Shown piece by piece: positions 7,790 through 51,213 of a stretch of 64,000 nucleotides of DNA. This DNA comes from Escherichia coli (GTDB lineage Bacteria > Pseudomonadota > Gammaproteobacteria > Enterobacterales > Enterobacteriaceae): NCBI GenBank assembly GCA_025336725.1, contig GCA_025336725.1_3647.1; one strand, written 5' to 3'. Within the stretch, counting starts at the first letter, position 1. The number at the start of each line of letters is the position of its first letter. The notes beneath the pieces are model-generated. The model saw only the letters and a list, made by a program, of their open reading frames with translations. It was not told where the DNA came from and searched no databases. The position numbers and the translations under genes were made by a program.

Positions 7790-7809
7790 CTCAGCAGGTT
7801 CCTGTCTAC

Positions 7810-8295
7810 TTAACAGATCAGGTTCCCTTCTTTATCGAAGAGATCAGCGGTTACTTGTTCAAAAATCTGTTGTGTTTTTAACGAACTGCTCTGATCTACC
7901 ACGTTAAGCTGCTTGCCTTCTTTTGCAGCTTTATGAATGGTCACGTTATCACAACGCTCTTCCAGCCATGCAATGCAAGACTCTGCGTCAGCTTGCGCCC
8001 ATTCCCAATCAGGATGCTCTTTAGCCCAAGCTTCCTCTTCAATCTCAAAACCAAGCATGTGTGCGAGTGCTTTGGCATCGTCATACCACATATCGAAGAA
8101 ACGACGCAGGTATTCTTCAAAACTCAGCTCCACAGTAACTTGGCGAAGTGCCTTAACAATATCGTCTGTTAACTGCTCAGGCTGAAGATCACTCTTCATC
8201 AAAAGAGATACAGGTCTGTTGTTAGCGCTATAGCCTTGCGCCTTATGGCACAGGGCAATCCCCTTCTCTTTAATAGTGATTGTTTTTTCAGACAT
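7810..8295 (-). CDS. Hypothetical head morphogenesis protein
   Basis: 161-aa track ORF between portal and scaffold. Confidence 0.3.
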   Translation of the reverse strand: MSEKTITIKEKGIALCHKAQGYSANNRPVSLLMKSDLQPEQLTDDIVKALRQVTVELSFEEYLRRFFDMWYDDAKALAHMLGFEIEEEAWAKEHPDWEWAQADAESCIAWLEERCDNVTIHKAAKEGKQLNVVDQSSSLKTQQIFEQVTADLFDKEGNLIC

Positions 8296-8870: not shown

Positions 8871-10338
8871 CAGCTCTACTGATGTCCTGGCCCAAGAGTT
8901 TCATTAGCTCTTCCTGATCCATGTCCTCGTCAAATCTTTCATCAAACCCGCCTACTTCAAGAATCTTATTAATTACTGCAGGAGTTTTTGGCAAGTAACC
9001 TACAGCACCGATCCTCTGGACAAACTTGGAGAAGCTCTCCATGTCCACTTCTTCAATCAGACCGGGTTTCAGTTTAGGCATATCATCATCTTCAAGGATG
9101 ATACCATTCAATGCCAGAAGCTGTGGAATAAGATCTTTATTGAAGGCCTCAGTGATAATATCTATATCACGCTGAACAAAATGCCCATGGATAGACTGTT
9201 TTGACTCAGACAGGGAGAAGGATCCAACGTTATCGTTACCGAGGTTAATAAATCCAGCACCGAAACGGTCAAGAATCGCCTTCTTACGGGCATCAATCAA
9301 ATCTTTAGTTGAATACTGCTTACCCATGCCGTCAACACCCTTCAGGGTCATGGAGTAAAGCTCTTTACCAGACTTATCTCTATCAGACGGAAGTATAAAG
9401 AAACTTTGCTCCCCACTGTGGGCATTTGCTGCGTCAAGCATAAGATCTGCAACCATTCTCCCTTCCATTGAATTCGGGTCAATACTGGCCTTGTTCAGAA
9501 TATTGGAAGGAATTTTCAGCTCAAGCACACCACCAAGGTCTTTGGAGCAGCCAACAACCTCAAGGTTTTCAATCAGAACTTTCTCACGGAAAGATCTGTA
9601 GCAACCTATCATCGGTGACACACCTGCAGGATTAGACTCTGTTCCTGACAAGGTCATGAGCATAAGCTTCTTGGCAGGGATGAAAATTTCAGGCTCATTA
9701 AAGCCTTTTGAAGGCATTGCAGCAAGAGGACCAGCCCAGCGTGCATTCTGCGTGTTTAGAAATGCATTAGGTGATTGATAAATACCTGTCAGTGTTCTAC
9801 TATTCTTGTCAAAGACAAACGGCTCTGATCTGGACAAACTGGCCTGAGGTCGGAATGCAATTTTATCAATAAGAAGCATCCCGGCATATTTACCTTCTTT
9901 CTCTCTGCGGTATACTTTCTCAAACAGTGAAAAACCATACTCGTTAAAGGTAGCTGCGCTTCTTGCAATATCTCGAAGAGTTTGCTGGTTTGCCAAATTA
10001 CGCAAAGAATACTCTATAAGCTCGGCAGCTTTCCTAGAGTCTTCACTTTTAACATTATAAAGGATCTTAAAATCATTAAATGCTTTCGTGATGAAAACAT
10101 ATTTTGTATCTAAGGCAGTAGCAACTGTGGAATCACATTTCATAGTCTCCACTGTGGCAATCAGCTGAGGCCAACGCAATTCCTCAACCATCATAGATTG
10201 TGATTCTGCCATAATTTGGGAAAGTGCGCCAGAACCGATCTCACTCATACGAACATTATGAGTTGGTGCGCCTGCGTTCCCAGATTTATTCACAGTTTTG
10301 GCTGTGGCGTTGTGTTTCCTGCGGTTCTTTTTGGACAC
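8782..10338 (-). CDS. Portal protein (putative)
   Basis: 518-aa ORF immediately downstream of the large terminase on the same strand. Confidence 0.6.
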   Translation of the reverse strand: MSKKNRRKHNATAKTVNKSGNAGAPTHNVRMSEIGSGALSQIMAESQSMMVEELRWPQLIATVETMKCDSTVATALDTKYVFITKAFNDFKILYNVKSEDSRKAAELIEYSLRNLANQQTLRDIARSAATFNEYGFSLFEKVYRREKEGKYAGMLLIDKIAFRPQASLSRSEPFVFDKNSRTLTGIYQSPNAFLNTQNARWAGPLAAMPSKGFNEPEIFIPAKKLMLMTLSGTESNPAGVSPMIGCYRSFREKVLIENLEVVGCSKDLGGVLELKIPSNILNKASIDPNSMEGRMVADLMLDAANAHSGEQSFFILPSDRDKSGKELYSMTLKGVDGMGKQYSTKDLIDARKKAILDRFGAGFINLGNDNVGSFSLSESKQSIHGHFVQRDIDIITEAFNKDLIPQLLALNGIILEDDDMPKLKPGLIEEVDMESFSKFVQRIGAVGYLPKTPAVINKILEVGGFDERFDEDMDQEELMKLLGQDISRAGDGMAAGSTGNGTSKMSSTRDNSISNMEN

Positions 10339-10440
10339 AAGCTTTACCCCTCAAAACAGTATAACAAAATAGCCCTCGTGTCAGAGGGCTAGTATCTCCG
10401 ATTACTCTATTCTACCACATCTAATTAAGATTGGCAACAC

Positions 10441-11583
10441 TTAGATAAAACGCTTGAACATAGAGGGTGATGAGATTGATGGAATCACACAAGGCAGCGC
10501 TACCTCCTCTTTCTCCAGGAAATTAATCGCAGAAGCTACACAGTCGGCCCAGTCGTCTTTTCTGTTAAATGTTGATCTTTCCCCGTTGAATTTTTCAAGT
10601 TCAGTCAGAAATGCTTCCAGAGTATCAGGATGAAAACTGGATTTTACAATCCTCACCATCCCTTGTTGGGCAAGATTGGCAAAAGGTGAGAACCTTGTCA
10701 GTTTAGATTTGTTGGAAGGCATTGGGTCTTCTTCAACCCTGAACCCTTCGGCGAGCAAGGATCTGGATGAGGTTAAGAACTCACTCTTACCTGCCTGACC
10801 AGGGTCCACAGAAAATACGATTATGCAATCATCTCCATCAAACTGCGCCTGTTTTCTGATGATCACATCTCGTTCCCCAGCCTTTTTACAGAACTTGCCT
10901 TCCAGACCTGTGGAATACCTCCCGTCATCCACGTTCTCAGGACAATAGTCCCCAGATAGGTAATAAAAGCCGTCGCTATCTTTACTTACCTTAACACTGG
11001 CGGTAAAGTCAGGAAATTTATTACCGGAAGTTCTCTCGGTTCCTGCCTTATCCCATGCCCTGCAAGATACTGATCCAAGAGGTACTCTATCGGCATCACG
11101 AAGGAAAGATCTTTGGAAATAGTTTGCACCCTCAGGTTTGGCAAACCAGTTGCCATGAAGAAGCTGGGCTTTTTCCAGCTCTGGCAGACCTTCAAGGAAA
11201 GCAAGGTATTCTGGGTTGTCTCTCAGGCATACAGGATTATCGAAAATTGTTGCGCCTATAAACGAGAATGACAACGGTCTTGGCTTGATTTCCACACCTA
11301 GTCCATTGACCGTAGTGTATTTCTCTATTAACTCCTCTTTAGAGTCTCCCCAGATAAACTCACCGTCGCGTCGGATAAAATATCTTTTCTTACCACATTT
11401 CTCCGGATCTGGATACCCTTCATCGTCCAACCACCACCTAACCAGTTTGGCAAGCATGTGTTCTGAGTCGGGGTTACAACTGATAACCATTCTTGATGGA
11501 TACTTTGACTGAGATCGCAGACGAGACATCAAATAGTCTATCTGCTCCCATTCGAATTGCGTGCCTTCATCGAAGCAAACCAT
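10441..11583 (-). CDS. terL: Large terminase, Walker B and nuclease segment
   Basis: Begins MVCFDEGTQF (Walker B hhhhDE); same frame as 11611..11988, separated from it by a single TAA at 11608-11610. Confidence 0.75.
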   Translation of the reverse strand: MVCFDEGTQFEWEQIDYLMSRLRSQSKYPSRMVISCNPDSEHMLAKLVRWWLDDEGYPDPEKCGKKRYFIRRDGEFIWGDSKEELIEKYTTVNGLGVEIKPRPLSFSFIGATIFDNPVCLRDNPEYLAFLEGLPELEKAQLLHGNWFAKPEGANYFQRSFLRDADRVPLGSVSCRAWDKAGTERTSGNKFPDFTASVKVSKDSDGFYYLSGDYCPENVDDGRYSTGLEGKFCKKAGERDVIIRKQAQFDGDDCIIVFSVDPGQAGKSEFLTSSRSLLAEGFRVEEDPMPSNKSKLTRFSPFANLAQQGMVRIVKSSFHPDTLEAFLTELEKFNGERSTFNRKDDWADCVASAINFLEKEEVALPCVIPSISSPSMFKRFI

Positions 11584-11610
11584 GGTGTATTCAAGTCCTT
11601 GATGGTTAGT

Positions 11611-11988
11611 TTATCTTGGACATACTCCATGTGGCAGTATTTTACAACGGCCTCCTTTTTTGCTCCTGTCCCACTTGCCAGTGCTCGGATCAAACCGTGG
11701 AAAAATAAACTTATGATCCTTCTCTCTGAACTTTGGTTTAATGTTTTCAGGCAGATCACTGTAAATAGCTACTGCTTTAGGCCATAGCCCACCCTCACCT
11801 TCCAACTGTGGAGTTGTTCTTCGGAACATAACCACAGAGCTGTGTGGGTCATCAATAATTTTAAGTGGCATTAGCTGCAAGAGGAACGACTTGCCAGAAC
11901 CGGCTGCACCTCCGATCACCAAAATATCTGCATCGTTCTCAAGGATCATCTTCTGCTTTTCAGAACACGGTCCGTAAATCTTAGACAT
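11611..11988 (-). CDS. terL: Large terminase, N-terminal ATPase segment
   Basis: Walker A GGAAGSGKS; ends at an in-frame TAA 8 codons before the downstream segment. Confidence 0.75.
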   Translation of the reverse strand: MSKIYGPCSEKQKMILENDADILVIGGAAGSGKSFLLQLMPLKIIDDPHSSVVMFRRTTPQLEGEGGLWPKAVAIYSDLPENIKPKFREKDHKFIFPRFDPSTGKWDRSKKGGRCKILPHGVCPR

Positions 11989-12275
11989 TAACCTCTCTCC
12001 TTTGGAAACAGTGTTCTTATATAGTCTTGCAAAATGATCAATTTAGCTCTATCATTACTACAAGACAGGTTATTATCCCTCATAATGCCAGAATTCACCG
12101 CATCTGGCGCACCTTTCTTCAAAGGGATAGCTTTAGCAGGTGGTTTCATAGCACCCTCGGGAGGTTTAACAATCAACCTTCCTACATCAGGAGGGTCAAT
12201 CTTATATTCTTTTTCGACACTTGTCGCACATCCGCACAGCAGTAAGCAAGCAACTAACAATACGGTGGCTCTCAT
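11988..12275 (-). CDS. o-spanin (outer-membrane lipoprotein, Rz1-like)
   Basis: 95 aa; signal peptide with lipobox-like LLLCGC; Pro-rich; 4-nt overlap with upstream i-spanin. Confidence 0.5.
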   Translation of the reverse strand: MRATVLLVACLLLCGCATSVEKEYKIDPPDVGRLIVKPPEGAMKPPAKAIPLKKGAPDAVNSGIMRDNNLSCSNDRAKLIILQDYIRTLFPKERG

Positions 12276-12670
12276 CTACCCTCCTGATTTATACTCTCAT
12301 TATAAATCTCTATAAGCTGATCAGGGAGTGTTGACTTCTTACCCTCAGGAGACTGGAGGTAAATAATCTGCTTTTCTTTACCTGCCTTCTCAGCTATACT
12401 TAATTTATCCTGCAGGTCAGAAAGGGATTTTTCAAGGTTTTTAACCTCCTCTGCGTGACCCATTTTAATCCTGTCCGCTTGCTTTTGTTGCTGATCAAGG
12501 ATCCGTTCCCACTTCAACTCTGTTGCTGTCACACCTTCCTGGTAAGCAGTGTCAAGCTTAGAATTAAACCAATATACGGCACCAAGATAGGCTATACCAA
12601 GAGTTGCTGCAAAAACTAAACCTTTTATGACCCCTTTATACCTGCCCAGTCCTGTTAAAACTGAAATCAT
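12272..12670 (-). CDS. i-spanin (Rz-like)
   Basis: N-terminal transmembrane helix then coiled coil; start refined to the Met preceded by GGAG (track ORF extends to 12706). Confidence 0.5.
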   Translation of the reverse strand: MISVLTGLGRYKGVIKGLVFAATLGIAYLGAVYWFNSKLDTAYQEGVTATELKWERILDQQQKQADRIKMGHAEEVKNLEKSLSDLQDKLSIAEKAGKEKQIIYLQSPEGKKSTLPDQLIEIYNESINQEGR

Positions 12671-12775
12671 TTTACGGCTCCAGAAACGAAAAAACCCCGC
12701 AGCCATACAGCTAACGGGGCGGGTTAAAATTGAGTAACCTAAATAGATCGAAACTAACTAAAAGGAGACTAATAC

Positions 12776-13045
12776 TTATCGAGGCACTCGGTGGATGATT
12801 CTAACAGTAACTGCATTCTCATTCATCAAGTAAGCATCCACATCTCTGTAAATATAAAACTTCTGCTCGCTATCAACAACACAAGCTACTGCCCCTTCAG
12901 AGTTGTCTTCAAAGAAGACCACTACTGCATCGCAGCTTAGTTCATGATACGACTCTCGAAGATTTACAGCAAGAGGGTTGAAATCGTCACGAAAATCTAC
13001 AGTATGGGTTGGATTTACACGTTCTACAATTTTAAGTGTATACAT
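12776..13045 (-). CDS. Hypothetical protein
   Basis: Track ORF 12776..13201 trimmed to Met 53 because the upstream extension overlaps tRNA-Pro. Confidence 0.35.
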   Translation of the reverse strand: MYTLKIVERVNPTHTVDFRDDFNPLAVNLRESYHELSCDAVVVFFEDNSEGAVACVVDSEQKFYIYRDVDAYLMNENAVTVRIIHRVPR

Positions 13046-13088
13046 TTTTAGGATTCCTTTTGTATATATGTTTAAGGTATGGTGAAAT

Positions 13089-13165
13089 TGGTCTCCACGG
13101 AGTGATTCGAACACTCGACCTCCTGATCCCAAATCAGGCGCTCTACCAAGCTGAGCTACGCGGAG
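13089..13165 (-). tRNA. tRNA-Pro (anticodon TGG)
   Basis: Hand-folded cloverleaf: acceptor CTCCGCG/CGTGGAG, anticodon stem CCTGA/TCAGG with loop TTTGGGA, T-loop TTCGAAT, encoded CCA. Confidence 0.65.
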
Positions 13166-13174
13166 TTTATAATT

Positions 13175-13249
13175 TGGTGGCCCTGGGTGGAATTGAACCA
13201 CCGTCTGGCGATTATGAGTCGCTTGCTTGAACCTTCCAGCTACAGGGCC
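13175..13249 (-). tRNA. tRNA-Met (anticodon CAT; could be Ile-lysidine)
   Basis: Acceptor GGCCCTG/CAGGGCC, anticodon loop CTCATAA, T-loop TTCAATT, encoded CCA. Confidence 0.6.
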
Positions 13250-13250
13250 A

Positions 13251-13326
13251 TGGTGCTGATGGCAGGACTCGAACCTGCAACCTATTGATTACAAATCAAT
13301 TGCACTACCAATTGTGCTACATCAGC
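13251..13326 (-). tRNA. tRNA-Thr (anticodon TGT)
   Basis: Acceptor GCTGATG/CATCAGC, anticodon stem ATTGA/TCAAT with loop TTTGTAA, T-arm GCAGG-TTCGAGT-CCTGC, CCA. Confidence 0.6.
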
Positions 13327-13331
13327 AAAAA

Positions 13332-13430
13332 GGTGCTAGGCGATGGAATCGAACCACCTATGTATTCAACGACTACTTCGTCTATTTTCAGGATTAAAAA
13401 TCCTCGCCCTTGCCAAAGGGCCTACCTAGC
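13332..13430 (-). tRNA. Atypical tRNA-like element (~99 nt), identity unresolved
   Basis: Good acceptor (GCTAGGT/GCCTAGC), D-arm and T-arm (GGTGG-TTCGATT-CCATC); only plausible anticodon hairpin AGGA-TTTTTAA-TCCT (TTT) plus a ~30-nt variable region with its own hairpin. Confidence 0.4.
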
Positions 13431-13528
13431 ATATTATGCGAATCATGCTGCTAGTCGGCGATGACGACTGTAACATTTGTTAATCCGGTTCTGCTTCCGG
13501 AGCTCGCTTAATTTCATGATCCACGATC

Positions 13529-13618
13529 TGGCAGAGAGTAATGGAATCGAACCATCATCGAGGATATCTCAACGGGACGGTTTTCAAGACCGCTTGAGCA
13601 CCATGCTCCCTACTCTCT
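13529..13618 (-). tRNA. tRNA-Ser (anticodon TGA), long variable arm
   Basis: Acceptor AGAGAGT/ACTCTCT, anticodon stem GCGGT/ACCGT with loop CTTGAAA, ~20-nt variable arm, T-loop TTCGATT, CCA. Confidence 0.6.
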
Positions 13619-13730
13619 TTTTATAAACAACACTGATAATGACACTGATTTTCGAACAGTTAGTGACTAGTATAAACGACGATAAACATCAATGTCATTA
13701 TCTATGTTATTTATCACAAATATGTAATTT

Positions 13731-13817
13731 TGGTGGGGAGTGATGGAGTCGAACCACCCGAGTCGCAATGACAATAGATTTACAGTCTACACCGCTACCC
13801 CTACGGTATAACTCCCC
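13731..13817 (-). tRNA. tRNA-Tyr (anticodon GTA), long variable arm
   Basis: Acceptor GGGGAGT/ACTCCCC, anticodon stem GTAGA/TCTAT with loop CTGTAAA, ~15-nt variable arm, T-loop TTCGACT, CCA. Confidence 0.6.
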
Positions 13818-13821
13818 GATT

Positions 13822-13896
13822 TGGCACCCCGTACTGGACTCGAACCAGTGTCAACGGCTTAGAAGGCCGCTGCTTTATCCACTAAGCTAACAGGGC
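13822..13896 (-). tRNA. tRNA-Arg (anticodon TCT)
   Basis: Anticodon stem GCGGC/GCCGT with loop CTTCTAA, T-loop TTCGAGT, CCA; acceptor contains G-U wobbles. Confidence 0.55.
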
Positions 13897-13954
13897 ACTG
13901 GGTGGCTTTCTTTTACACCTGAGCCGCCAGAAAAGGTGGGAGACCATGTTTATA

Positions 13955-13983
13955 ATATTACACTGTTAAGCAAAGTTTGTCAA
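13955..13983 (-). promoter_or_regulatory. Sigma70-type promoter for the tRNA operon
   Basis: Minus strand TTGACA - 17 nt - TAATAT about 50 nt upstream of tRNA-Arg. Confidence 0.55.
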
Positions 13984-13992
13984 GAAAATATT

Positions 13993-14187
13993 TTAACTGT
14001 TGCTAACAGGCTGTATTTCGGTGGTAAACGGCATAAAAGGTGCTGGTTTTTCAGCCTCTTCTACTACCACCTCTTCTTCCTCTTCACCAAACATCTCATC
14101 ATATTCTTCCTGCATTCTGTCTGCCTTGTCAAGGACATACTCTGCAATGCTTTGACGAATATTTTGTTTGGTTTTCGGATCCAACAT
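13993..14187 (-). CDS. Hypothetical protein, 3' portion (5' end lost in assembly gap)
   Basis: Acidic C-terminal ORF segment running into the N-run. Confidence 0.3.
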   Translation of the reverse strand: MLDPKTKQNIRQSIAEYVLDKADRMQEEYDEMFGEEEEEVVVEEAEKPAPFMPFTTEIQPVSNS

Positions 14188-14288
14188 CNNNNNNNNNNNN
14201 NNNNNNNNNNNNNNNNNNNNNNNNNNNNNNNNNNNNNNNNNNNNNNNNNNNNNNNNNNNNNNNNNNNNNNNNNNNNNNNNNNNNNNNN
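14188..14288. other. Assembly gap (run of N)
   Basis: About 100 consecutive N characters in the sequence. Confidence 0.95.
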
Positions 14289-14296
14289 AAACAACC

Positions 14297-14539
14297 TCAT
14301 TGTAAAGCACAAATAAATAAAACATACTTAATTTGTTTGTTATCGGGCTCAGGGTAGAAGTAGAAGATCTTGCTATCACCAATCTGAACACCACCATCCC
14401 AACAACATAAACCATAACCCGTATTCATACAAGCTAAGTCGTTGGCAAAATCTATTGCATCATCTAGTGCACGAAATTCACCTTCATCTTCTAAATAATC
14501 CTCATTCATGGAGCGGAAAACGAGCTTAACCTTAAACAT
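14297..14539 (-). CDS. Hypothetical protein (3' end may lie in the gap)
   Basis: 80-aa track ORF abutting the N-run. Confidence 0.3.
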   Translation of the reverse strand: MFKVKLVFRSMNEDYLEDEGEFRALDDAIDFANDLACMNTGYGLCCWDGGVQIGDSKIFYFYPEPDNKQIKYVLFICALQ

Positions 14540-14819: not shown

Positions 14820-15392
14820 TTCATAGTAAATTTTATTTAACATTACCTCATTCTTTGCAGAAAGAATACCGAGATATGCATCACCGAACCTACCTGCAAC
14901 AACCTCTGCATGATACATCACTTCGTTAATATCGTCAAGAGTGATAACTGGATGACCGTATCTCTCTGAATATTGTCTTAGAGTGCGATGTAGAGAGTCG
15001 TCATCGTAGGCAGACTTTTTAATATCGCAAACACGACGAATAGCCTTGATGTCGAAAAACCCTGTGCGATACTAACCAAAGGAAAGTGTCTCATCAGTAT
15101 CAACATCTACATCAATACTAGCAAGAACCTTATCTACAAGATAGCTGTCATCCTTTGGACTAGCTTCCTTAGTGCGAATGTAGTTGCCATCTTTCCCTGG
15201 TGACAACTCCTTCTCATCACCAACTCGCATGTCATCGTTTGGCGGTGTTAACCACTTATCTGGATGCTTACGATCACGAGCGTCCGAATGATTGCGCTGG
15301 AAACCTGGCTTCCACTTGAAAGTTTTCCCCATCTGTTCTTCATCCTGATAACGTTTTGCAATCTTTTCTCGGTCATGTTTGCGTGAGCTCAT
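14820..15392 (-). CDS. Hypothetical protein, apparently frameshifted into two segments
   Basis: Track ORF 15072..15392 continues in another frame (YRTGFFDIKAIRRV...KIYYER, no start codon of its own) down to ~14820; shift sits near a TTTTT run. Confidence 0.3.
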
Positions 15393-18459: not shown

Positions 18460-18504
18460 AGAAGTGGAAAGTTCTTTTTAATCATTCCAGCTTAAGGGAG
18501 CTGT

Positions 18505-19113
18505 ATGAAACTTGTGCATGGTGTTGGTGTTAATGATGCAGACTATCCTGTCAGGGTTTTAGACAAGGATACCGGAAAGAGAATCATGTGTCCTTTTTAT
18601 ATGACATGGTCAAATATGCTAGGAAGGTGCTACCTTAAAAACAAGAAATTTGAAGCTTATGCTATGGTAGAAGTTTGTGAAGAATGGAAAATCTTCAGCA
18701 ACTTTAAGCGCTGGATGGAAAAACAAGATTGGCGGGATAAATTTTTAGATAAAGATATCCTGTTTGAAAATAATCTTATATACTGTCCAGAAGCGTGTAT
18801 TTTTGTTCCTCGTGAAATAAACAACTTCTTTGTAGCAAGGGTACCACAAAGAGGGGAGTGTTTGATGGGAGTAAGAAGAAAAGGCCCATCTTTTGCTGCC
18901 TATTGCAAAGATGGGGTTAATGACACACAGGTTTATCTTGGAACCTTTCCCACGCAGATTGAGGCACATATGAAATACTTGGAATGCAAACTGCAACTTC
19001 TTAGAGACTTGATTAGAACTGTAGATGACAGTAGGTTGCTATTAGGATTACGAAGAATTGAGAGTAAGATAGTTTTAGCTTTATCTTCAAAAACACCGAT
19101 AGAAAATTTTTAG
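18505..19113 (+). CDS. AP2-domain protein (homing-endonuclease-related DNA-binding protein?)
   Basis: C-terminal GVRRKGPSFAAYCKDG...YLGTFPTQIEAHMKY resembles an AP2/ERF-type domain; no HNH or GIY-YIG motif seen. Confidence 0.4.
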   Translation: MKLVHGVGVNDADYPVRVLDKDTGKRIMCPFYMTWSNMLGRCYLKNKKFEAYAMVEVCEEWKIFSNFKRWMEKQDWRDKFLDKDILFENNLIYCPEACIFVPREINNFFVARVPQRGECLMGVRRKGPSFAAYCKDGVNDTQVYLGTFPTQIEAHMKYLECKLQLLRDLIRTVDDSRLLLGLRRIESKIVLALSSKTPIENF

Positions 19114-19121
19114 AGGGATGT

Positions 19122-19469
19122 ATGAAAGTCTGGATAGATGATTTGCGTAACCCAGCTGATTACGGACAGGCAGATGCAGTTTGGTTTAAAACTTCACAAG
19201 AGGCTATGGAGTTTCTCAATACTCCTGCTAAAATGTATCGAAGAGTGACAGAGTGGTTTTTTGACCACGATTTGGGTGAAGACTCTGATCAAGACGGGTA
19301 TGCTGTTTTATTGCGCCTGGAAGAGCTATTTGTATTTGGCAAGCCACCTGTTGTTGACAACGTGAAGATTTTCGTGCATACTTCTAACCCATCAGCAGCT
19401 CGTAAATTTATGCTTGCTGCAGATTCGTTCAGAAAGTTTGGAATAGAGATCAAACAGAACATTTACTGA
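19122..19469 (+). CDS. Hypothetical protein
   Basis: 115-aa track ORF immediately upstream of Sir2 with a 9-nt gap. Confidence 0.35.
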   Translation: MKVWIDDLRNPADYGQADAVWFKTSQEAMEFLNTPAKMYRRVTEWFFDHDLGEDSDQDGYAVLLRLEELFVFGKPPVVDNVKIFVHTSNPSAARKFMLAADSFRKFGIEIKQNIY

Positions 19470-21338: not shown

Positions 21339-21591
21339 TCTTGCTAAACCTGTAGAAGCACACCAGTTTGATGGAAGCTCTTCCTCAGCATCTGATCTGC
21401 AACGGTGGATTGATACAGGTGAGTTTACATCGTCACCTGTTCGGACCAGAGATATTCGTCGCATGTGTGAGCTTGTCGAGCGTTTGGTAACCTGGTCTTT
21501 TACAGGGGATTGGTTAGTTGACTTTATGGGAGACTGGCTGGTAATGAGTAAAGAAGAAATGTTTAAAATTTTTAAGGAGGAGACTGAGTAA
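21325..21591 (+). CDS. Hypothetical protein
   Basis: 88-aa track ORF. Confidence 0.3.
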   Translation: MPLFNLAKPVEAHQFDGSSSSASDLQRWIDTGEFTSSPVRTRDIRRMCELVERLVTWSFTGDWLVDFMGDWLVMSKEEMFKIFKEETE

Positions 21592-24474: not shown

Positions 24475-24937
24475 GTGGAAGACGGTCGTTTAATGAAGTC
24501 TGAACGCAGGCTTATTGTGCAGCTGATCCCAGAAACAGCTTGGTATAATAACCTACGAAACGCTGTGAAGAAGAGCGAGTGGGATAAGATCCGTAAGAAG
24601 TGCTACAGAGAGGCCAACTACACTTGTGAGGTGTGTGGCGGTAAAGGTAGCAAACACCCAGAATTAGTGTCATGAACTTTACACTTTCGAAGGGGGTGAT
24701 CGGCTTGTAGGACTGATAGCGTTGTGCCCAGACTGTCACACATCGGTGCATCCAGGGTTAGCAAATATCCGTGGAAAGTATGCTCAGGCAGTTAATCAGT
24801 TGGCTAAGGTGAATAAGATCACCAAGGGTATGGCAGAGGCCTATTACCGAGACTGCTTTGCAGAGTGGCGTGAGCTTAGTAAAGTTCCAGAATGGAAGAC
24901 TGACTTTTCGTGGATAGAGGGTTACCTTGATGGCTAA
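24475..24937 (+). CDS. HNH-like zinc-finger nuclease, apparently frameshifted
   Basis: CEVCGGKG...HPELV in one frame continues as CHELYTFEGGDRLVGLIALCPDCHTSVH in the adjacent frame (~24655). Confidence 0.4.
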
Positions 24938-27052: not shown

Positions 27053-27676
27053 GAGAGCGTCTATTATCCATAGACCAGTCGTTGACACACACAGCTTGTG
27101 TTGTATGGGACGATGGAAAGCCTGTTCATAAGGTTGTATTACGAACTCAAAGCTCATCTGCAAAAGAGAAGAAACCAGGGACGGTTTCTTTTGCAACAGC
27201 TGCTGAGCGTATTGACTGGATCTGCAAACAGGTCAGATATTATATCCACACGCACGGAGTTGACACCGTGGTTATGGAAGGGCTTTCCTTTGGATCACGC
27301 GGGGATGCCACACGTGAACTGGCGGGTTGTTTTACGGTCTCGAAGTATGCTTTGGGATGCTTTAGCAGATTGTGAAAATGACGGCCTGTTTAAGGTCCAC
27401 ACAGTAACACCGACAACCGCCAAAAAGTTTGCTCGTAGTCATCTTCCTGAAGAACTTGCTTTTGAGGAGAAGAAAAAGCTTGACAAAAAGACAGGTAAAG
27501 AGCATACTGTGAAGAAACCTGTTACGATGGATAAAAAGTTAATGGTTAAGGCCTGTGAAGTATCTGAACCAGGGTTTCTGGATGGGATCAATTTAAGATA
27601 CAAGGTAAGGCCGATCTGCAGATGCCTACGGATAGGCAGGGCGCATCTGGAGGGATTATCGCAAAGCGTAAAATAA
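27049..27676 (+). CDS. RNase H-fold nuclease (RuvC/YqgF-like resolvase candidate), apparently frameshifted
   Basis: SIDQSLTHTA...VVMEG in the first frame; continues in a second frame after ~27340 (near TGTTTTA). Confidence 0.3.
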
Positions 27677-28231
27677 GAAAGAAAGCTGTCAAAGCTCCCG
27701 TTCATAGCGGGTGGCTAAAAGATTCTAAGGACATAGCCAACTTTCGGAAAGAATTGTCAGAAGAGCAGGATGGCCTTGATCCGATCTTGTGCGAGCCACT
27801 TCGTAAGCCTTGTTTAGATCATGATCATCTGACTGGTCGTTGCAGAGGTGTTTTGTCCCAATGCACTAATACCTTTGAAAGATATGTGCTTAAATACTGG
27901 ATGAAATACTGTAGCGAGTATCAGGTGCAGTTTATCAGAGGCGTTGCGCCGGATGGCTGACTATCTGGAGAAAGACTACAGCGACTTCCCGCTCCACAAA
28001 AACTACAGAGACGATATGACAAAGTTCTTGAGGAGATGCTCTAAAGCCACAATTATTGCACGAGCAGAATCGGATCTCGATCTTGTCATTAATCCAGAGT
28101 ACACTAAGCATGAGGCTATTGAAGCCTACATGCAGGAGTTCATAAAGAAAACTGAGGAGAGAGACTTCTATGGGGATGAAAAAGGTATTCAATCCTTGCG
28201 ATTCAGTTCTGATCAGGATGAAATACCGTAA
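27622..28231 (+). CDS. Endonuclease VII-like resolvase, apparently frameshifted
   Basis: CLDHDHLTGRCRGVL...CTN resembles the T4 gp49 core; C-terminal part (ADYLEKDY...) lies in the next frame from ~27950. Confidence 0.5.
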
Positions 28232-30687: not shown

Positions 30688-30891
30688 TTGGAGGCCACAA
30701 TGACACTAAAGTTAACAATTCCAGACAGCTTTTCAGAAAACTTTATCCCAGAAATGATGGATAAGATGCGATCATTGCTTGATCAGATCGAGGAAGCTGT
30801 TTGGGAAGACGATGCTGTAGTGGCTAACGAGCTGGTAGATAAGTGTAAAAGTATTATTGATGCAGTTGAAGAATACCACGGAGGTTTTTGA
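30688..30891 (+). CDS. Hypothetical acidic protein
   Basis: 67-aa track ORF. Confidence 0.3.
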   Translation: MEATMTLKLTIPDSFSENFIPEMMDKMRSLLDQIEEAVWEDDAVVANELVDKCKSIIDAVEEYHGGF

Positions 30892-32459
30892 TGGATATTA
30901 TTGTTCTTAATGCACCACCGTGCTGCGTCCCGAGTGGTACAGAGTTCCTCACCAAATCCGGGTGGAAAAGTATAGAAGATTTTGATAATGATTTCGTGGC
31001 GGTGTGCGATAAATTTGGGGCAATGCATTGGGAGATACCTGAATTTATTGAAGGCAATACTCCAGTTTTTGAAAAGGGCGTTTTTGCCACATGGTCTATG
31101 GTTTTAACACCTAACCACAAAGTTCTGTATGAAAACAGAAGAGGATCAAGAATTGCTAGAGAGTGGTCAGAGATAACTTTGGAATCCAAAACTGGCTACG
31201 ATGGATATATACCTGCCACCTTCCATCAAGAGTCTGGAGAGGATGTGGACGATTTTGACCTGCTTAGAGTTGCAATCCTAGCAGACTCTTCTGAGGTTAA
31301 AAACCGAGAAGGTGTGTTAATGTTTAATATTAAAAAGGACCGTAAAAAGGAGAGGCTGCGATACTTATTTAAAAGAACTGGAGTAACCTTTTCCGAAAAA
31401 GAGTTTGAGAGTATGCCTGGTTACACCCGTTTTTTCATTCACAACAGCCCTTTCATGAAGAAAGATGGTATACCTAGCCACTGGTGGAATCTCTCTTCCA
31501 AGGCCAGTGAAAAACTACTAAACGAGATGCTGAAATGGGATGGGTGCGAGAAATACAAATCTTTCTCAACCACTTCTAAAGAGGAGGCAGATCTATTTCA
31601 GCTTTTAGCAGCAAAATGTGGGAGAAAGGCCAAAATTGAAATAGATAACTACAAAAGGGAGTGTGATGAAGAGAGCAGAACTCGTAGCGTTTGCTATGCG
31701 GTAAAAATTCTAAAGTCAGACTCTTATTCGATGCGTAAAAGTGGCGGATATGATAATCCCGATAAAGCTTTTCAACCTTACAAAGAGGAGTTACCTGGGG
31801 GTAAGTGTTACTGCTTTACCACAACAACCGGATTTTGGGTGGCAAGACAAAACGGTATGGTGTTTTTAACAGGTAACAGTGGAAAAGACCATATTGCAGA
31901 TCTCTTGTTGGAAGCTATTCCTAACTCACACCACCGTGAGGTTAAGGAGATGCTATTCAGTGTGGCAATTAAGGCAGCTGGTGTAACTCCTCAGCTCTGG
32001 AATGCACTTTATGACCGCCACTACAAAGAAGAGCCTTGCCCTTTCTTAATGATAGACGGCAAGCATGTTTCTCCGCGAGAATGGATGATCCATTGTAGTG
32101 AAAATCTGATTAAACCTATCTTTGGTGAAGATGCTTTCGGTAAAGCCGCAGTCGCATCTTTGAAGAAAGATTTCCCTGAAGGTAAAGGGGTTATTGTTTA
32201 CTCCGATGGTGGATTCAAAGAGGAGCTGGCATGCCTTAGTGAGTACGCATACAGCACAGGTGGAGATCTGTTGTTGTTCCGTATTCACCGTGTCGGATAT
32301 GACTGGGGAAATGATTCCAGAACCTATCTAAGTCTGGAAAAGAACGGAATAAAAGGGATTGAGTTTGATGTTGTAAACCCTGAAGGTGCACCTTGGGAAT
32401 GTGCATCGGAGATTGTGTGCAAGTATATTGATGCTAAAGAGGCACAAGAAGAATGTTAA
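30891..32459 (+). CDS. dNMP kinase (T4 gp1-like) interrupted by an intein
   Basis: Extein MDIIVLNAPPC + SGKDHIADLL... gives a P-loop of the T4 gp1 type (RSGKDT); extein C-terminus resembles dNMP kinase. Confidence 0.6.
   Translation: MDIIVLNAPPCCVPSGTEFLTKSGWKSIEDFDNDFVAVCDKFGAMHWEIPEFIEGNTPVFEKGVFATWSMVLTPNHKVLYENRRGSRIAREWSEITLESKTGYDGYIPATFHQESGEDVDDFDLLRVAILADSSEVKNREGVLMFNIKKDRKKERLRYLFKRTGVTFSEKEFESMPGYTRFFIHNSPFMKKDGIPSHWWNLSSKASEKLLNEMLKWDGCEKYKSFSTTSKEEADLFQLLAAKCGRKAKIEIDNYKRECDEESRTRSVCYAVKILKSDSYSMRKSGGYDNPDKAFQPYKEELPGGKCYCFTTTTGFWVARQNGMVFLTGNSGKDHIADLLLEAIPNSHHREVKEMLFSVAIKAAGVTPQLWNALYDRHYKEEPCPFLMIDGKHVSPREWMIHCSENLIKPIFGEDAFGKAAVASLKKDFPEGKGVIVYSDGGFKEELACLSEYAYSTGGDLLLFRIHRVGYDWGNDSRTYLSLEKNGIKGIEFDVVNPEGAPWECASEIVCKYIDAKEAQEEC
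30924..31877 (+). mobile_element. Intein (318 aa) with homing-endonuclease-like insert
   Basis: Block A CVPSGTEF, block B TPNH (TxxH), C-terminal FLTGN followed by +1 Ser; central LAGLIDADG-like LLRVAILADSSE. Confidence 0.6.
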
Positions 32460-37382: not shown

Positions 37383-38470
37383 ATGGCTGTATTTAATGCT
37401 GAGAACACCGCTCATAAAACTGGTGACTATCCGCTGTTTCTGGGACAGCAAATGGGCATGTACGACTCTATCAACAAAAAATATCCACAACTGTTTGAAC
37501 TATACAAAAAACAAAAAGAGCAAGATTGGGCAGAGGATGAAGTGGATTTGTCGCAATCTATTTCAGATTTTGTAACATGCTCTAAGTCAACTTATGACGT
37601 GATGGTGCAGACCTTGATGTGGCAATGGGAGGCTGATAGCGTTGCGGCAAGATCGATTATCTGCCTCTTTTCACCATTCATCACTAATAGCGAGCTTTTC
37701 ACTCTACTGATGAAACAGTCAGAGATTGAAGTTCTTCACGCACTAACCTACTCAGAGATTGTTAGACAATGCCTCCCTAATGCTCGTGAGATTATAGAAG
37801 AGATTCAGGAAAACCAAAACGTTCTGAGCAGATCTGGCGTTATTGTCAAATACATGCAAGAGCTTGAGATTATTGGTGCAAAATACCGACTGGATCCTTC
37901 TAGTGTTGAAGAAGATATTGTGCGGAAATGCATTCTTAGAGCGCTTTTGCACTTTTAGCTCTGGAAAGTATTGAGTTTGTGCAAGTTTTGCATATACTTT
38001 CGCAGTAGCTGAACAGGGTATTTTTTGTTCAGGTAGCGCAGCTTGTTCAAAAAATCATGCTTGACGAAATGCTGCACTCGAAAGGTGATTTTGCCATCAT
38101 TGATATCCTGCTTAATGATCCAGCATGGGAGAAAAGCTTCCTTGAGATAAAAGGGGAGTTAAAAGAGATTCTTGATGAAGTACGAACCAAAGAGTACGGT
38201 TGGAGCGACTATATTTTCAGCGAAGGAAGAGCGATTATAGGTCTTAACTCACCGTTGCTTAAAGAATGGGTTGACTATAACTGTTCACCGATTTATGATT
38301 ACTACGACATCGACAAAGACTTTGTGCCGCCAACAAAGGACCCGCTACCGTTTATGCAGGTGTGGATGAAACCTTCATTGCAACAGACGGCGAACCAAGA
38401 AATGTCGAACACTGACTACCGCGTCAACACAACTGTTAACGACGCTGAAGAAGAAATTTGGGAGTTTTAA
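37383..38470 (+). CDS. nrdB: Ribonucleotide reductase small subunit, disrupted by about three frameshifts
   Basis: N-part has ExxH-Y (EIEVLHALTY); the SFAxxFAxAE and DEMLH motifs appear in different frames within 37940-38060, each switch at a T-run. Confidence 0.65.
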
Positions 38471-38473
38471 TAT

Positions 38474-38752
38474 ATGAGCTGCGAAAAATCTTTTTTCATC
38501 ATCATTTACGGTAAGGATAACTGCCCACATTGTGTAAGAGCAAAAGAATTTGCAGTCAGTAAAGGCATACCTTTCGTATACAAGACGCTAGGTGAGGGAT
38601 ACACAAAAGAAGAGCTTATCGAGAAGTGTAGCCCATTTGTTCCCAGAACGTTGCCTCAGATCTTCTTGGAAAGCAACCTTAACAGTATCCACATAGGAGG
38701 TGCTGACGATTTCATCTCTTTTGTTAAGAATGGTTTTGGAGAGAAAAAGTGA
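38474..38752 (+). CDS. Glutaredoxin (NrdH-like)
   Basis: 92 aa with CPHC redox motif near the N-terminus. Confidence 0.65.
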   Translation: MSCEKSFFIIIYGKDNCPHCVRAKEFAVSKGIPFVYKTLGEGYTKEELIEKCSPFVPRTLPQIFLESNLNSIHIGGADDFISFVKNGFGEKK

Positions 38753-41378
38753 AAGTTGTAAAACGGGACGGTAGAGAAGAGTTTTATAACGGAATCAAGG
38801 TGATCAAGGCGGCAGAGTCCGCCTTACTTGAGTCTGGGCATACTGAAGAAGAAGCTTACCGGATTGCCTGCGCGGTTAATGAAGTTGTTGCCAACAATCT
38901 GCCAACCGACCAGTGCACGATCTCTGTAAAAAATATCCATATCCTTGTTGAAGATGCTCTTATGGATATGGGTTTAAAATGTGCAGCCAGAGAATACATC
39001 CAGTATAGACAGACAAGAGATAATAACAGAGAGGCAGGTGGAAAACTGCTTGCAGATATTAGTGGCTTTTTGGATCGTACTTGTGATGAATTTACAAAAG
39101 AAAACGCAAATAAGCCTACTAATCATGTACACACTCATCGTGACCTGCTTGCAGGAATCCTTAGCAAACACCTTGCATCAACACAGATCCTGCCAGATCG
39201 TGTCTCAGAAGAGCACAACAAGGGCTTCATCCATGTGCATGATCTTGACTACTTGATCAGTCCGTTAACAAACTGTTGTTTGGTAAATTATCCGGATATG
39301 CTGGAAAACGGATTCAACATTGGTAACGCCCATGTCAGCAAGCCTAAGTCAATAGGGGTTGCAACAACAATCCTTAGCCAAATCTCTAGTGCAGTAGCTA
39401 GTGCTCAATATGGTGGTCAGACTATGAGCCATATTGATCATTATTTGGCACAGTATGCTGAAGCCACCTATGAGAAGAACCTTAAATTTTGTCAGGAGCA
39501 TTGGTTGCCGGATGCTGAAGGCGTTGCAATGCAGATGACTGATAAAGACGTGTTTGACAGTATGCAGACGTTGCTTTATCAAATCAACACGTTAACTTCT
39601 GTCAACGGTTAACAAACTGGCCGTTTTAAAACTCTGCTAACCTCAGTATGAGGGGTCAGCTGATTGCTGGCTAACGGGGAACGCTAAGGCGAAAGCTATG
39701 CCAATCCCGTGACTAGCTTCACAAGGAGTGAGGCGGTTGTAACGACTAACCTTTTGGTGTAGGGATTATGGAAGATTCCGAAACGCAGAGGTCTGATTAA
39801 GAATCACATGGTGTGATTTCAGGCAAGAGATAGTCTGGCCTTGTGGAAACATAAGGGTGGGGACCGCAAACCCCTTTTATCACATTAAGTTTAGGACTTG
39901 ATACCTCGGTCTTTGGTAGAATGATTACCAAAAACTATTTGAAAGTTCACAAAATGGGTCTTGGTGAAGAACGGATCACACCTGTGTTCCCTAAAGTATT
40001 GTTCTTCCTAGAAGAGGGTGTCAACATGAGCCCTGAGGATCCTAACTATGATTTGAAACGATTAGCTCTGGAATGCTCTGCAGAGCGGATTTATCCTGAC
40101 TTTGTTTCTGTTCCGCTAAATCGTAAGGTGACAGGTTCTACAGATGGCAAAGTAACGAGCATGGGTAAACTATAACTGCTCATGTAAAATCTATCTAAAC
40201 GGGGAAACTCCAGAACGGACAATCCCGTGCTAAATGTTCTTTTGAACTAAATGCCTAACGACTAACCGTGATGAATGTAGCGGTGTAGGGTGTAAGCCGA
40301 TGACACTCGAAATGGTAGACACACTAAGTGTGAAGATATAGTCTGATCTGCATGGGAACATGCAGCAGCACTTAAAGGTGCGGGGGTGGACTTGCGAACC
40401 ACCCTGAACATAATGTGTAGAAGTTTCTTATCGAAATATAGCGACCCTGTAACAGGCGAGGAGAAATACCTTGGCAGATTTAACTTAGGTGTTGTTAGCC
40501 TTAACCTACCAATGATTGCGGCAAAAGCTAAGACGGAAGGTGTTGATTTCTTTACCGTTCTAGACGAATATCTGGATTTGGCATATGAAGCTCACCTTGT
40601 AAGGGTTAACCGTCTGAAAGGCACTAAGGCAGGTCAGAACCCCATCATGTGGTGTGAAGGCGCTCTTGCTCGCTTGGATCCTGAAGAGAGTATTGATAAA
40701 CTCTTCTATGACGGGTACGCTTCCATCAGTATTGGGTATATTGGTGTGTATGAAACCTGTCAGATTTTGGGTAGAGAGGGAGACAAGGCTTTAGCTCTTG
40801 GAATCCTTCAGCACATGAAAGATGCTTGTGAGCGATATAAGAAGGAAAGTGGTCTGGCATTCAGCTTGTACGGCACTCCTTCTGAAAGCTTGTGCTACAA
40901 AGCTGCAACCTGTCTGGATCGTGAATATCCTGAGGTATTGAAGCACGAGCATGAATATATCACCAACAGTTTCCACCAACCAGTATGGATCAATAGTTCA
41001 CCTTTTGATAAGTGGAAGTATGAAGAAGGTTTTGCTATGATCTCCTCTGGCGGCAACATTGGATACATAGAGACACCTAACCTGAAAAACAACCTGGATG
41101 CTTTAGAGGCTCTTGTTGACTTCGGGTATAAACACATTATGTATTTTGGTATTAACCAGCCAGTGGATAAATGTCTTAAGTGTGGATTCTCTGGTGAGTT
41201 CAGTGCAACAGCTAAAGGGTTCTGCTGCCCTGCGTGCGGATGCCACGATGAACAATATATCTCAGTGATCCGAAGAGTGTCTGGCTATCTCTCCAGCCCG
41301 AACAGTAGGCCGTATAACACAGGTAAACAAGCAGAGGTTATCGAGCGAGTTAAGCACTACGGAAGTTGTGGCTGCTGA
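38749..41378 (+). CDS. nrdD: Anaerobic ribonucleotide reductase, three exons
   Basis: Exon1 38749..39609, exon2 ~39867..40166 (GPQTPF...DTS...GRMIT...PEDPNYDL), exon3 40416..41378 (CRSFL, RVSGYL glycyl-radical motif, CxxC...CxxC). Confidence 0.7.
39610..39866 (+). mobile_element. Group I intron 1 in nrdD (ORF-less, ~257 nt)
   Basis: Exon ends in T, intron begins with TAA stop and ends in G; contains AAGAGATAGTCTGG resembling the group I core; exon reading frame restored after removal. Confidence 0.5.
40167..40415 (+). mobile_element. Group I intron 2 in nrdD (ORF-less, ~249 nt)
   Basis: 5' exon ends ATGGGT, intron ends in G before TGT AGA (CRSFL); contains AAGATATAGTC, the conserved group I core element. 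Confidence 0.6.
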
Positions 41379-45767: not shown

Positions 45768-46028
45768 TTGTGTATTGTTGTTATCAACAAGGGGGTCATT
45801 TATGTATGTCATTTTCAATTTACTCAAGACAGGCGAAACACTACACAGAGATTCTGATCACTCAGAAAAAATCTGTAGAAGGTGAGGGAATATCATCATA
45901 AATGCGTCCAGATCGGGTTTTTGATAGGCTTATTGCTATGATCCCTCTTGAGAAGTATACCCTCTGACAGGTCATAGGGATGCTTGGGATTTAATTGATT
46001 ACATAGATTCATTTAAGGAGCCTAGTGT

Positions 46029-47902: not shown

Positions 47903-48309
47903 CGATGTTTGTTAAATATGTAAAAACGTGCCTCAACAGTCTTGGTAGAGAGCATTGGTACACACTGCTTGAAAAAGGAGAAATTTTAACAAAATCTGGA
48001 AAGATAACTTTGATACCTTTGGACGATAAAGATCCGTCACTACTTGTCATAGATGATTACGTTACAGGTGTGTCGTACGAGGTATCTGTAGAGAGGTTAA
48101 TACGCAGATCTGGAGGTCCTTATGACCGAAGAGAGTATGTTTTCGATTCCGTTACAGAGAAGGAAGATCCGTCCCTAATGTTTAGGATGGTGATCAGGGA
48201 TATGAAATCATCTATAAATAGGATCGTAAAGGACATTAGAAGGCCTTTTAGGGTAAAAGTTAAGAAGTTTTTGATTCTAAAAAGATCAACATACTCGCCG
48301 TTGTGCTAG
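47899..48309 (+). CDS. Hypothetical protein
   Basis: 136-aa track ORF. Confidence 0.3.
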   Translation: MTMFVKYVKTCLNSLGREHWYTLLEKGEILTKSGKITLIPLDDKDPSLLVIDDYVTGVSYEVSVERLIRRSGGPYDRREYVFDSVTEKEDPSLMFRMVIRDMKSSINRIVKDIRRPFRVKVKKFLILKRSTYSPLC

Positions 48310-50497: not shown

Positions 50498-50900
50498 TTG
50501 GGGACTGTTGTGAAAAATAAACTGTTCAAAGTTACAATGAAAATTCGCGGAGCTTGGAGCGTAAAGCAAGGGCGTATCCCGGAATTTGAAAAAGACTTCT
50601 ACGTAGTCTCCACCTCGGAGGCTGCATGCTGTGAGCTGGCTGTACTATGCAAGAACTGTCGAAGGATACCAGACTGGTGGCTATGACGGAGAAATTATAA
50701 GCAAGGGTGTAGAAGAAATTAATGTGTTGACAAGTGAAAAAGTTTTTGTTATAGTGCATCCAGATTCCAGAGTGAAGCATTACTGGAATGCCAGAACAAA
50801 AACTTGGACACCGTTTGCAGATTCTGCTACGCCACTTTTAAACCAGAAAGCTCTTGACTCTGCCCCAAGTTATGGGGTTGTTGAAGAAAAGCTAGACTGA
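50498..50900 (+). CDS. Hypothetical protein, apparently frameshifted; paralog of 52705..53100
   Basis: Two overlapping track ORFs; C-part VIVHPDSRVKHYWNARTKTWTP matches VMRHPHSNIAYYWDVLNNEWTP of the 52705 ORF. Confidence 0.35.
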
Positions 50901-51213
50901 AACAGTGAGGTACTAACATGATGGATTTAGTTCTGGACACTGATAACACCGGAGAGTTTAAAAAGGATGGTGTAACAAGCGTTGACCAATCCTTCTCTGC
51001 CAAGATTGACTCAAAATGGACCTACAAGTTTGATGGAGATCTCCGCAAATGACTAAGGAAGGTTGTAGATGCTGCAGCCATTTTGAACGCTCTGGATACG
51101 ACCCTGTGAATCCTTTGATCAAGGATCCTGTTGAGTTTGCAGAGTATGTTCGAAAAATGGCAGATCTTGCTGTAGATATTTTAGACACTATCGACAACAA
51201 GCTATAAAAACTG

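Follow-up and report, generated by a model that had tools for sequence, protein, structure and literature searches.

A stop codon inside the large terminase gene of a Vequintavirus-type genome reads as a compensating pair of single-base indels and is probably a sequence error

The DNA considered here is a stretch of 64 kb (hereafter the window) whose source type is a Vequintavirus, an rV5/FV3-like myophage of Escherichia coli. Positions 10300-12100 are matched at 90-98% identity by 121 phage records in GenBank, nearly all of them Escherichia Vequintavirus (rV5, FV3, Murica and similar) and some titled 'Campylobacter phage', and the initial 25 kb of the window are collinear with FV3, variants of rV5, HMD-6 and others at 93-97% identity. 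Vequintaviruses are virulent phages, without the refuge of a prophage state. Two stretches of the window stand apart from this collinearity: FV3 has nothing at the equivalent place for positions 1-773, which appear to lie within the match to HMD-6, and for positions 18468-19317 the equivalent segment is missing from both FV3 and HMD-6. The latter stretch contains an open reading frame (ORF) of 202 residues at 18505-19113 (plus strand), flanked by an RNA ligase and the next conserved gene; Pfam does not match it, and it may represent a mobile gene of the free-standing kind. On the minus strand, positions 13089-13896 hold six tRNA genes (Pro-TGG, Met-CAT, Thr-TGT, Ser-TGA, Tyr-GTA and Arg-TCT), with an additional weak tRNA-like match at 13335-13430. 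The tRNA-Ser gene (13529-13618) is unannotated in FV3, contains two of the window's private indels (13604 and 13618), and is matched in Rfam only by a sub-threshold tRNA-Sec.

The gene of concern lies on the minus strand between an o-spanin gene and a portal gene, an order (o-spanin, TerL, portal) shared by the window and its relatives, in which the gene at this place is annotated as terminase large subunit (TerL) and forms a single coding sequence of 1548 nt encoding 515 residues. The features of the locus are as follows.

10441..11988, minus strand: large terminase (TerL) gene of 1548 nt, with the start, stop and length of the intact 515-residue TerL of relatives; identified by Pfam (Terminase_6N and Terminase_6C) and by synteny
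11887..11910, minus strand: Walker A motif (P-loop) GAAGSGKS, residues 27-34, from direct reading of the translation
11566-11583, minus strand: Walker B motif MVCFDE, residues 136-141, from the translation
11611..11988, minus strand: upstream ORF as written, 125 residues and a TAA; true TerL sequence up to residue 112, out of frame from 113 to 125
10441..11583, minus strand: downstream ORF as written, 380 residues from Met136 (the first residue of Walker B), including the C-terminal RNaseH-like nuclease domain
11653, minus strand (approximate; any of 11651-11655): extra base, the window reading AAAAAAGGAGGCC where its closest relatives read AAAAAAGGGGCC and the other clade AAAAAGGGAGCT; from DNA alignments
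11608..11652, minus strand: out-of-frame stretch of 15 codons, in which the +1 frame encodes AVVKYCHMEYVQDK, identical to relatives
11611..11613, minus strand: in-frame TAA, which takes the final two bases of GAT (Asp125) and the opening base of AAA (Lys126) as read in the true frame
11607..11608, minus strand: missing T, relatives reading CTTAAC and the window CT-AAC, after which the original frame is regained; from DNA alignments

The gene carries the marks of a T4-like phage large terminase, namely an N-terminal Walker A of the form GxxxxGK[ST] and a Walker B (hhhhDE) with its catalytic glutamate; its ATPase and nuclease profiles both exceed their curated cut-offs once the sequence is repaired as described below, and a single uninterrupted or spliceable frame over both domains, absent from the gene as written, appears only after a correction of two bases. 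A sequence-only reading of this DNA had taken the gene to be the essential TerL, and motifs, Pfam profiles and the relatives' coding sequences all agree with that identification. It had also placed the Walker A ORF and the Walker B/nuclease ORF in one frame, as they indeed are: their starts differ by 405 nt (11988-11583), or 3 x 135, with a single stop between them, and the outer limits of the two ORFs taken together are exactly those of the relatives' 1548-nt coding sequence. Its description of them as separated only by a TAA at 11608-11610 holds for the single TAA but not for its position, which is 11613-11611, nor for the word 'only', given that 15 codons here are out of frame.

The nature of the interruption emerges from DNA alignments made with four GenBank relatives and then with three IMG/VR contigs and one Logan contig. 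In whole-gene pairwise blastn of the window's TerL against seven relatives there are exactly two gaps and none elsewhere. The insertion stands at about 11653 in the context AAAAAAGG[A]GGCC, and the deletion converts the relatives' GATAAGCTTAACC to GATAAAC-TAACC in the window, with a synonymous AAG>AAA change at 11610 adjoining the missing T. The two indels, one of +1 and one of -1, are 46 nt apart, and between them residues 113-127 as written (GRCKILPHGVCPR*T) all differ from the relatives' AVVKYCHMEYVQDKL. The split is visible in Pfam as well, where Terminase_6N is divided between profile positions 2-73 in the upstream ORF and 99-211 in the downstream ORF, which also holds Terminase_6C, and the centre of the domain is lost; as written, the upstream ORF scores 16.7 bits for Terminase_6N, below the cut-off, and the downstream ORF about 41 bits for Terminase_6N and 29 bits for Terminase_6C. 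As judged from these alignments, the TAA is the product of a compensating pair of +1 and -1 indels and of no nonsense substitution. A single base change, whether mutation or miscall, that converted a sense codon to TAA and left the rest of the gene in frame would account for the shared frame on either side and the one stop, but the relatives read CAA GAT AAG CTT AAC at this place, so that the TAA straddles two codons of the true frame, the 14 flanking residues are wrong too, and the alignment requires two gaps. The DNA alignment rejects such a substitution, to which we assign next to no probability. A comparison with relatives at the stop codon, which had been proposed as a check, thus meets no substituted codon there, the TAA being an out-of-frame reading of GAT AAR.

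When the extra base is deleted and the missing T put back, the repaired TerL is identical in all 515 residues to that of phage EPFV3-03/2025 and to that of a Logan contig (L009), and differs from FV3 TerL by one residue. Its Pfam matches become continuous and strong, with Terminase_6N covering profile positions 2-211 at 72.6 bits (cut-off 22) and Terminase_6C scoring 27.9 bits (cut-off 22.6); a PDB sequence search with the repaired protein gave no meaningful match. At the DNA level the gene differs from those of EPFV3 and L009 at 33-51 positions, all of them synonymous, and from others at more. Even the AAG>AAA change inside the garbled patch is synonymous when the true frame is used, and the only non-silent changes in the window's TerL relative to EPFV3 and L009 are the two indels. 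With every substitution in this lineage synonymous, strict purifying selection has acted on the original frame of the gene until now. The nearest named relatives, EPFV3-03/2025 (XRA40575.1), EduardKellenberger (QXV77697.1), Murica (YP_009593907.1) and FV3 (YP_007006235.1), have their TerL at the same locus, with the same start, the same stop and 1548 nt; these four Vequintavirus terminases (Terminase_6N and Terminase_6C) are 95-98% identical to the window in DNA, with 100% protein identity to EPFV3 after repair, and have neither the extra base nor the missing one. The window gene is an ordinary Vequintavirus TerL, an allele free of introns, and no new feature.

Both indels are unique to the window among the sequences compared. 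Neither is present in approximately 125 related sequences, and the 96-nt stretch that holds both sites reaches a best identity of no more than 94.8% among 119 GenBank records. In three IMG/VR relatives and in Logan contigs the TerL frame is intact or the gene has an HNH insertion at another point, and the Logan contigs compared encode a portal protein identical to that of the window. Exact look-up of the 125-residue and 380-residue ORF products in an index of 153 billion genes returned no record of either. A 25-mer bearing the insertion had zero exact matches in IMG/VR, JGI metagenomes and GTDB genomes, and a 19-mer bearing the deletion had zero in IMG/VR, both weak results in that a wild-type control 25-mer also had zero matches in IMG/VR; a degenerate control pattern found three IMG/VR relatives, with the frame intact in all three.

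The TerL lesion is one of many in the window. The 81 annotated FV3 coding sequences of the collinear region were translated and searched against the window, where 78 of the proteins found a match; ten of these 78 showed a change of frame or an internal stop. The same test returned none of 61 for HMD-6 and two of 79 for Aya, one of Aya's two being TerL, which ceases to align with the window at 11562/11564, roughly where HMD-6 has an intron. The ten frame-broken genes of the window, relative to FV3, and its other private indel patches are these.

About 7806-7815: break in a 325-residue head-module protein
TerL: frame-broken in the window, as described above
15080-15095: break in a 192-residue protein
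24665-24702: break in an HNH endonuclease
27324-27346: break in an RNaseH-like protein
27921-27927: break in EndoVII
37945-38021: break in NrdB
NrdD: frame-broken in the window
45791-45949: break in a 79-residue protein
48273-48281: break in a virion structural protein
21481-21504, 27595-27629, 50617-50658 and 51034-51094: other window-private patches of small clustered indels with extra substitutions, relative to FV3, HMD-6 and Aya

Further frame breaks lie in the 50-57 kb part of the window. Several patches give uncompensated frameshifts, as in the head-module protein, the HNH endonuclease, the RNaseH-like protein, EndoVII, NrdB and the virion structural protein. The region 39609-40455 leaves NrdD in pieces, with ORFs at 38749-39612, 39921-40175 and 40386-41378; NrdD is split in FV3 and HMD-6 by an HNH endonuclease that the window lacks, although non-homologous spacers of about 250 nt and one internal stop remain there, and these could be the remnant of an intron or further sequence errors. 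Another ORF, at 30888-32459 (plus strand), encodes 523 residues, made up of an FV3-type dNMP-kinase-like protein of 200 residues (MDIIVLNAPPSSGKDH...) and an in-frame insertion of about 322 residues inside its P-loop. The insertion begins with a cysteine (NAPP/CCVPSGTEF...) and ends ...FLTGN/SGKDH, boundaries that are intein-like; it is absent from FV3, HMD-6 and Aya, and Pfam returned no match for the ORF.

Counting as private only what distinguishes the window from three relatives at once (FV3, HMD-6 and Aya), there are 46 private indels, gathered in 22 patches of no more than 60 nt, and approximately 680 private substitutions. Neighbouring indel pairs number 24, compared with some two to three expected by our own Poisson estimate. 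In coding patches the net change of length is mostly not a multiple of three, being so in only four of about 13. Private substitutions lying more than 30 nt from an indel comprise 437 synonymous and 115 non-synonymous changes, whereas those within 30 nt of an indel comprise 13 synonymous and 14 non-synonymous (Fisher p = 5e-4) and are twice as dense: selection is lost inside the patches, which are spread across the genome. GATC (Dam) sites occur at 10 of the 46 indel events, compared with 5.6 expected, a weak association (p = 0.045, uncorrected, with events that are non-independent) of a kind that would hint at methylation artefacts of nanopore sequencing, and fourteen other 4-mers showed no association with the indel patches. 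The errors differ from plain errors of homopolymer length, as in the change from GGGG to GGAGG. A lineage under strong selection everywhere except in short garbled patches that ignore the reading frame is what technical error would leave behind, and is not what evolution would.

The interruption of TerL is therefore very probably an error of sequencing or assembly in an error-rich assembly. The real phage would have an intact TerL, and the sequence as written would contain two single-base errors, without which the sites would read AGCAAAAAAGGGGCCGTT and GATAARCTTAACC. The first of this pair would shift the frame for 15 codons and expose a TAA from GAT-AAR (Asp-Lys), and the second would restore it; because such errors cancel, the two halves of TerL look as though they were in frame and parted by one stop. 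A pair of indels with no net effect is a one-in-three coincidence under random errors, and as such unremarkable. The pair would be one case among the short garbled patches met all over the window, each with clustered small indels and extra substitutions, of a kind that would be typical of an assembly of low coverage or insufficient polishing. The earlier suggestion of a sequencing or assembly substitution was thus on the right track in naming error as the likeliest cause and mistaken in its mechanism, which the alignment makes a +1/-1 indel pair. Furthermore, a virulent phage could not multiply from a genome in which TerL, a head-module protein, a virion structural protein and several genes of replication and nucleotide metabolism were all broken, where the essentiality of the head-module and virion structural proteins is taken as an assumption.

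It is unlikely that the indels and the other lesions of the window are real, belonging to a defective or non-clonal genome (a decaying variant from a metagenome or a mixed lysate) that co-infecting intact relatives sustain. Both lesions are, after all, present in the sequence as written; near-identical Vequintaviruses coexist in single samples, as the identical portal protein in several Logan assemblies attests; and 46 indels to approximately 680 private substitutions is not an absurd ratio for raw mutation. Against this, the purifying selection seen outside the patches (437:115, and in TerL 33-51 differences, all synonymous) is incompatible with a relaxation long enough to break some ten genes, independent mutations would not gather in patches of 60 nt or less, no other assembly has either indel, the exact ORF products are without record, and the phage type is lytic, with no prophage in which a damaged genome might shelter. 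The proposal of a recent nonsense mutation in a defective phage accordingly fails as regards the nonsense substitution, and as regards a real lesion of any kind it is disfavoured by the similar lesions in about ten genes of a strictly lytic type.

Far less probable still is that the sequence is real and TerL is nevertheless made from it, by two successive frameshifts, by read-through or as an active split terminase of residues 1-125 and 136-515. A frameshifting ribosome would have to shift by +1 near AAA-AAA-GGA-G and then by -1 near GAT-AAA-C. In its favour, the insertion creates an AGGAGG motif, resembling a Shine-Dalgarno sequence, after a run of six A. Shine-Dalgarno-like motifs and A runs are elements of known frameshift sites in E. 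coli (prfB, dnaX). However, none of the marks of programmed frameshifting or read-through (an in-frame slippery site, a stimulatory element, conservation) was found at the TerL sites. Inspection of the sequence shows at neither of them a correctly framed slippery sequence that would permit cognate re-pairing; the 141-nt region is no more stably folded than shuffled versions of itself (z = -1.0); there is no Rfam recoding element, the only Rfam matches in 10000-14500 being tRNAs; and neither site is conserved, the frame of the relatives being plain and uninterrupted. Two serial events of low efficiency would, moreover, yield little TerL. Read-through, which the sequence-only reading had listed as the less likely cause, could not rescue the gene: it would leave out-of-frame residues in place of 14 conserved ones in the ATPase core immediately ahead of Walker B, none of the six phage tRNAs is a suppressor, and the region forms no structured RNA. 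We know of no leaky context of the form TAA-A. As to a split terminase, TerL in pieces does occur naturally in this subfamily, though by way of introns (PMC7344957), but split expression here would drop the conserved strand AVVKYCHMEYVQDKLNHQGLEYT before Walker B (Terminase_6N profile positions 74-98). Recoding and splitting alike leave the other broken genes unexplained.

The practical use of the finding is chiefly as a warning about quality. The window as written is unsuitable for gene calling, for TerL phylogeny and for the prediction of packaging type: annotation would turn TerL, and no fewer than nine further genes, into pseudogenes or split genes. More generally, an 'in-frame stop' can mask a compensated double frameshift, and comparison with close relatives at the level of DNA exposes such cases, while a pattern of substitutions that are synonymous only is evidence of selection on the gene. 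A viable phage that truly carried the lesion would have to make its terminase in split or recoded form, for which we found no support here.

Split terminase genes do occur among the relatives, though their cause is another. In HMD-6 a group I intron (Rfam RF00028, 81.4 bits; L004:1029-1307, equivalent to about 11565 in the window) lies directly after the FDEG codons of Walker B, and TerL is annotated as two coding sequences. A Logan contig (L008, 2122-3094) has an ORF of the HNH_3 type between nucleotides 744 and 745 of TerL, and in several GenBank relatives (H1, H12, H13, H19-21 and H27-30) the gene holds insertions, 0.3-1.9 kb long, whose annotation is endonuclease VII or HNH. In Pectobacterium phage CB7, of the Vequintavirinae, a splicing-competent HNH intron resides in TerL (PMC7344957). 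Mobile insertions have a hotspot in the TerL of the relatives, and the window has none of them. The break in HMD-6 lies about 45 nt downstream of the lesion in the window, and in each TerL comes as two ORFs; yet terminase genes split by introns or homing endonucleases carry an inserted element, and splicing restores their mRNA, whereas the window has no insert and a gene of wild-type length. A split by intron or intein is ruled out on the same grounds, there being no inserted DNA, no Intron_gpI match and a gene of 1548 nt like the intact alleles.

There is a likeness, too, to the compensated frameshift artefacts, with their paired indels, of unpolished long-read or low-coverage drafts of phage or bacterial genomes. 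As in these, the lesions of the window ignore the reading frame, strike many genes and are absent from all relatives, and they likewise take the form of clustered small indels accompanied by nearby miscalls.
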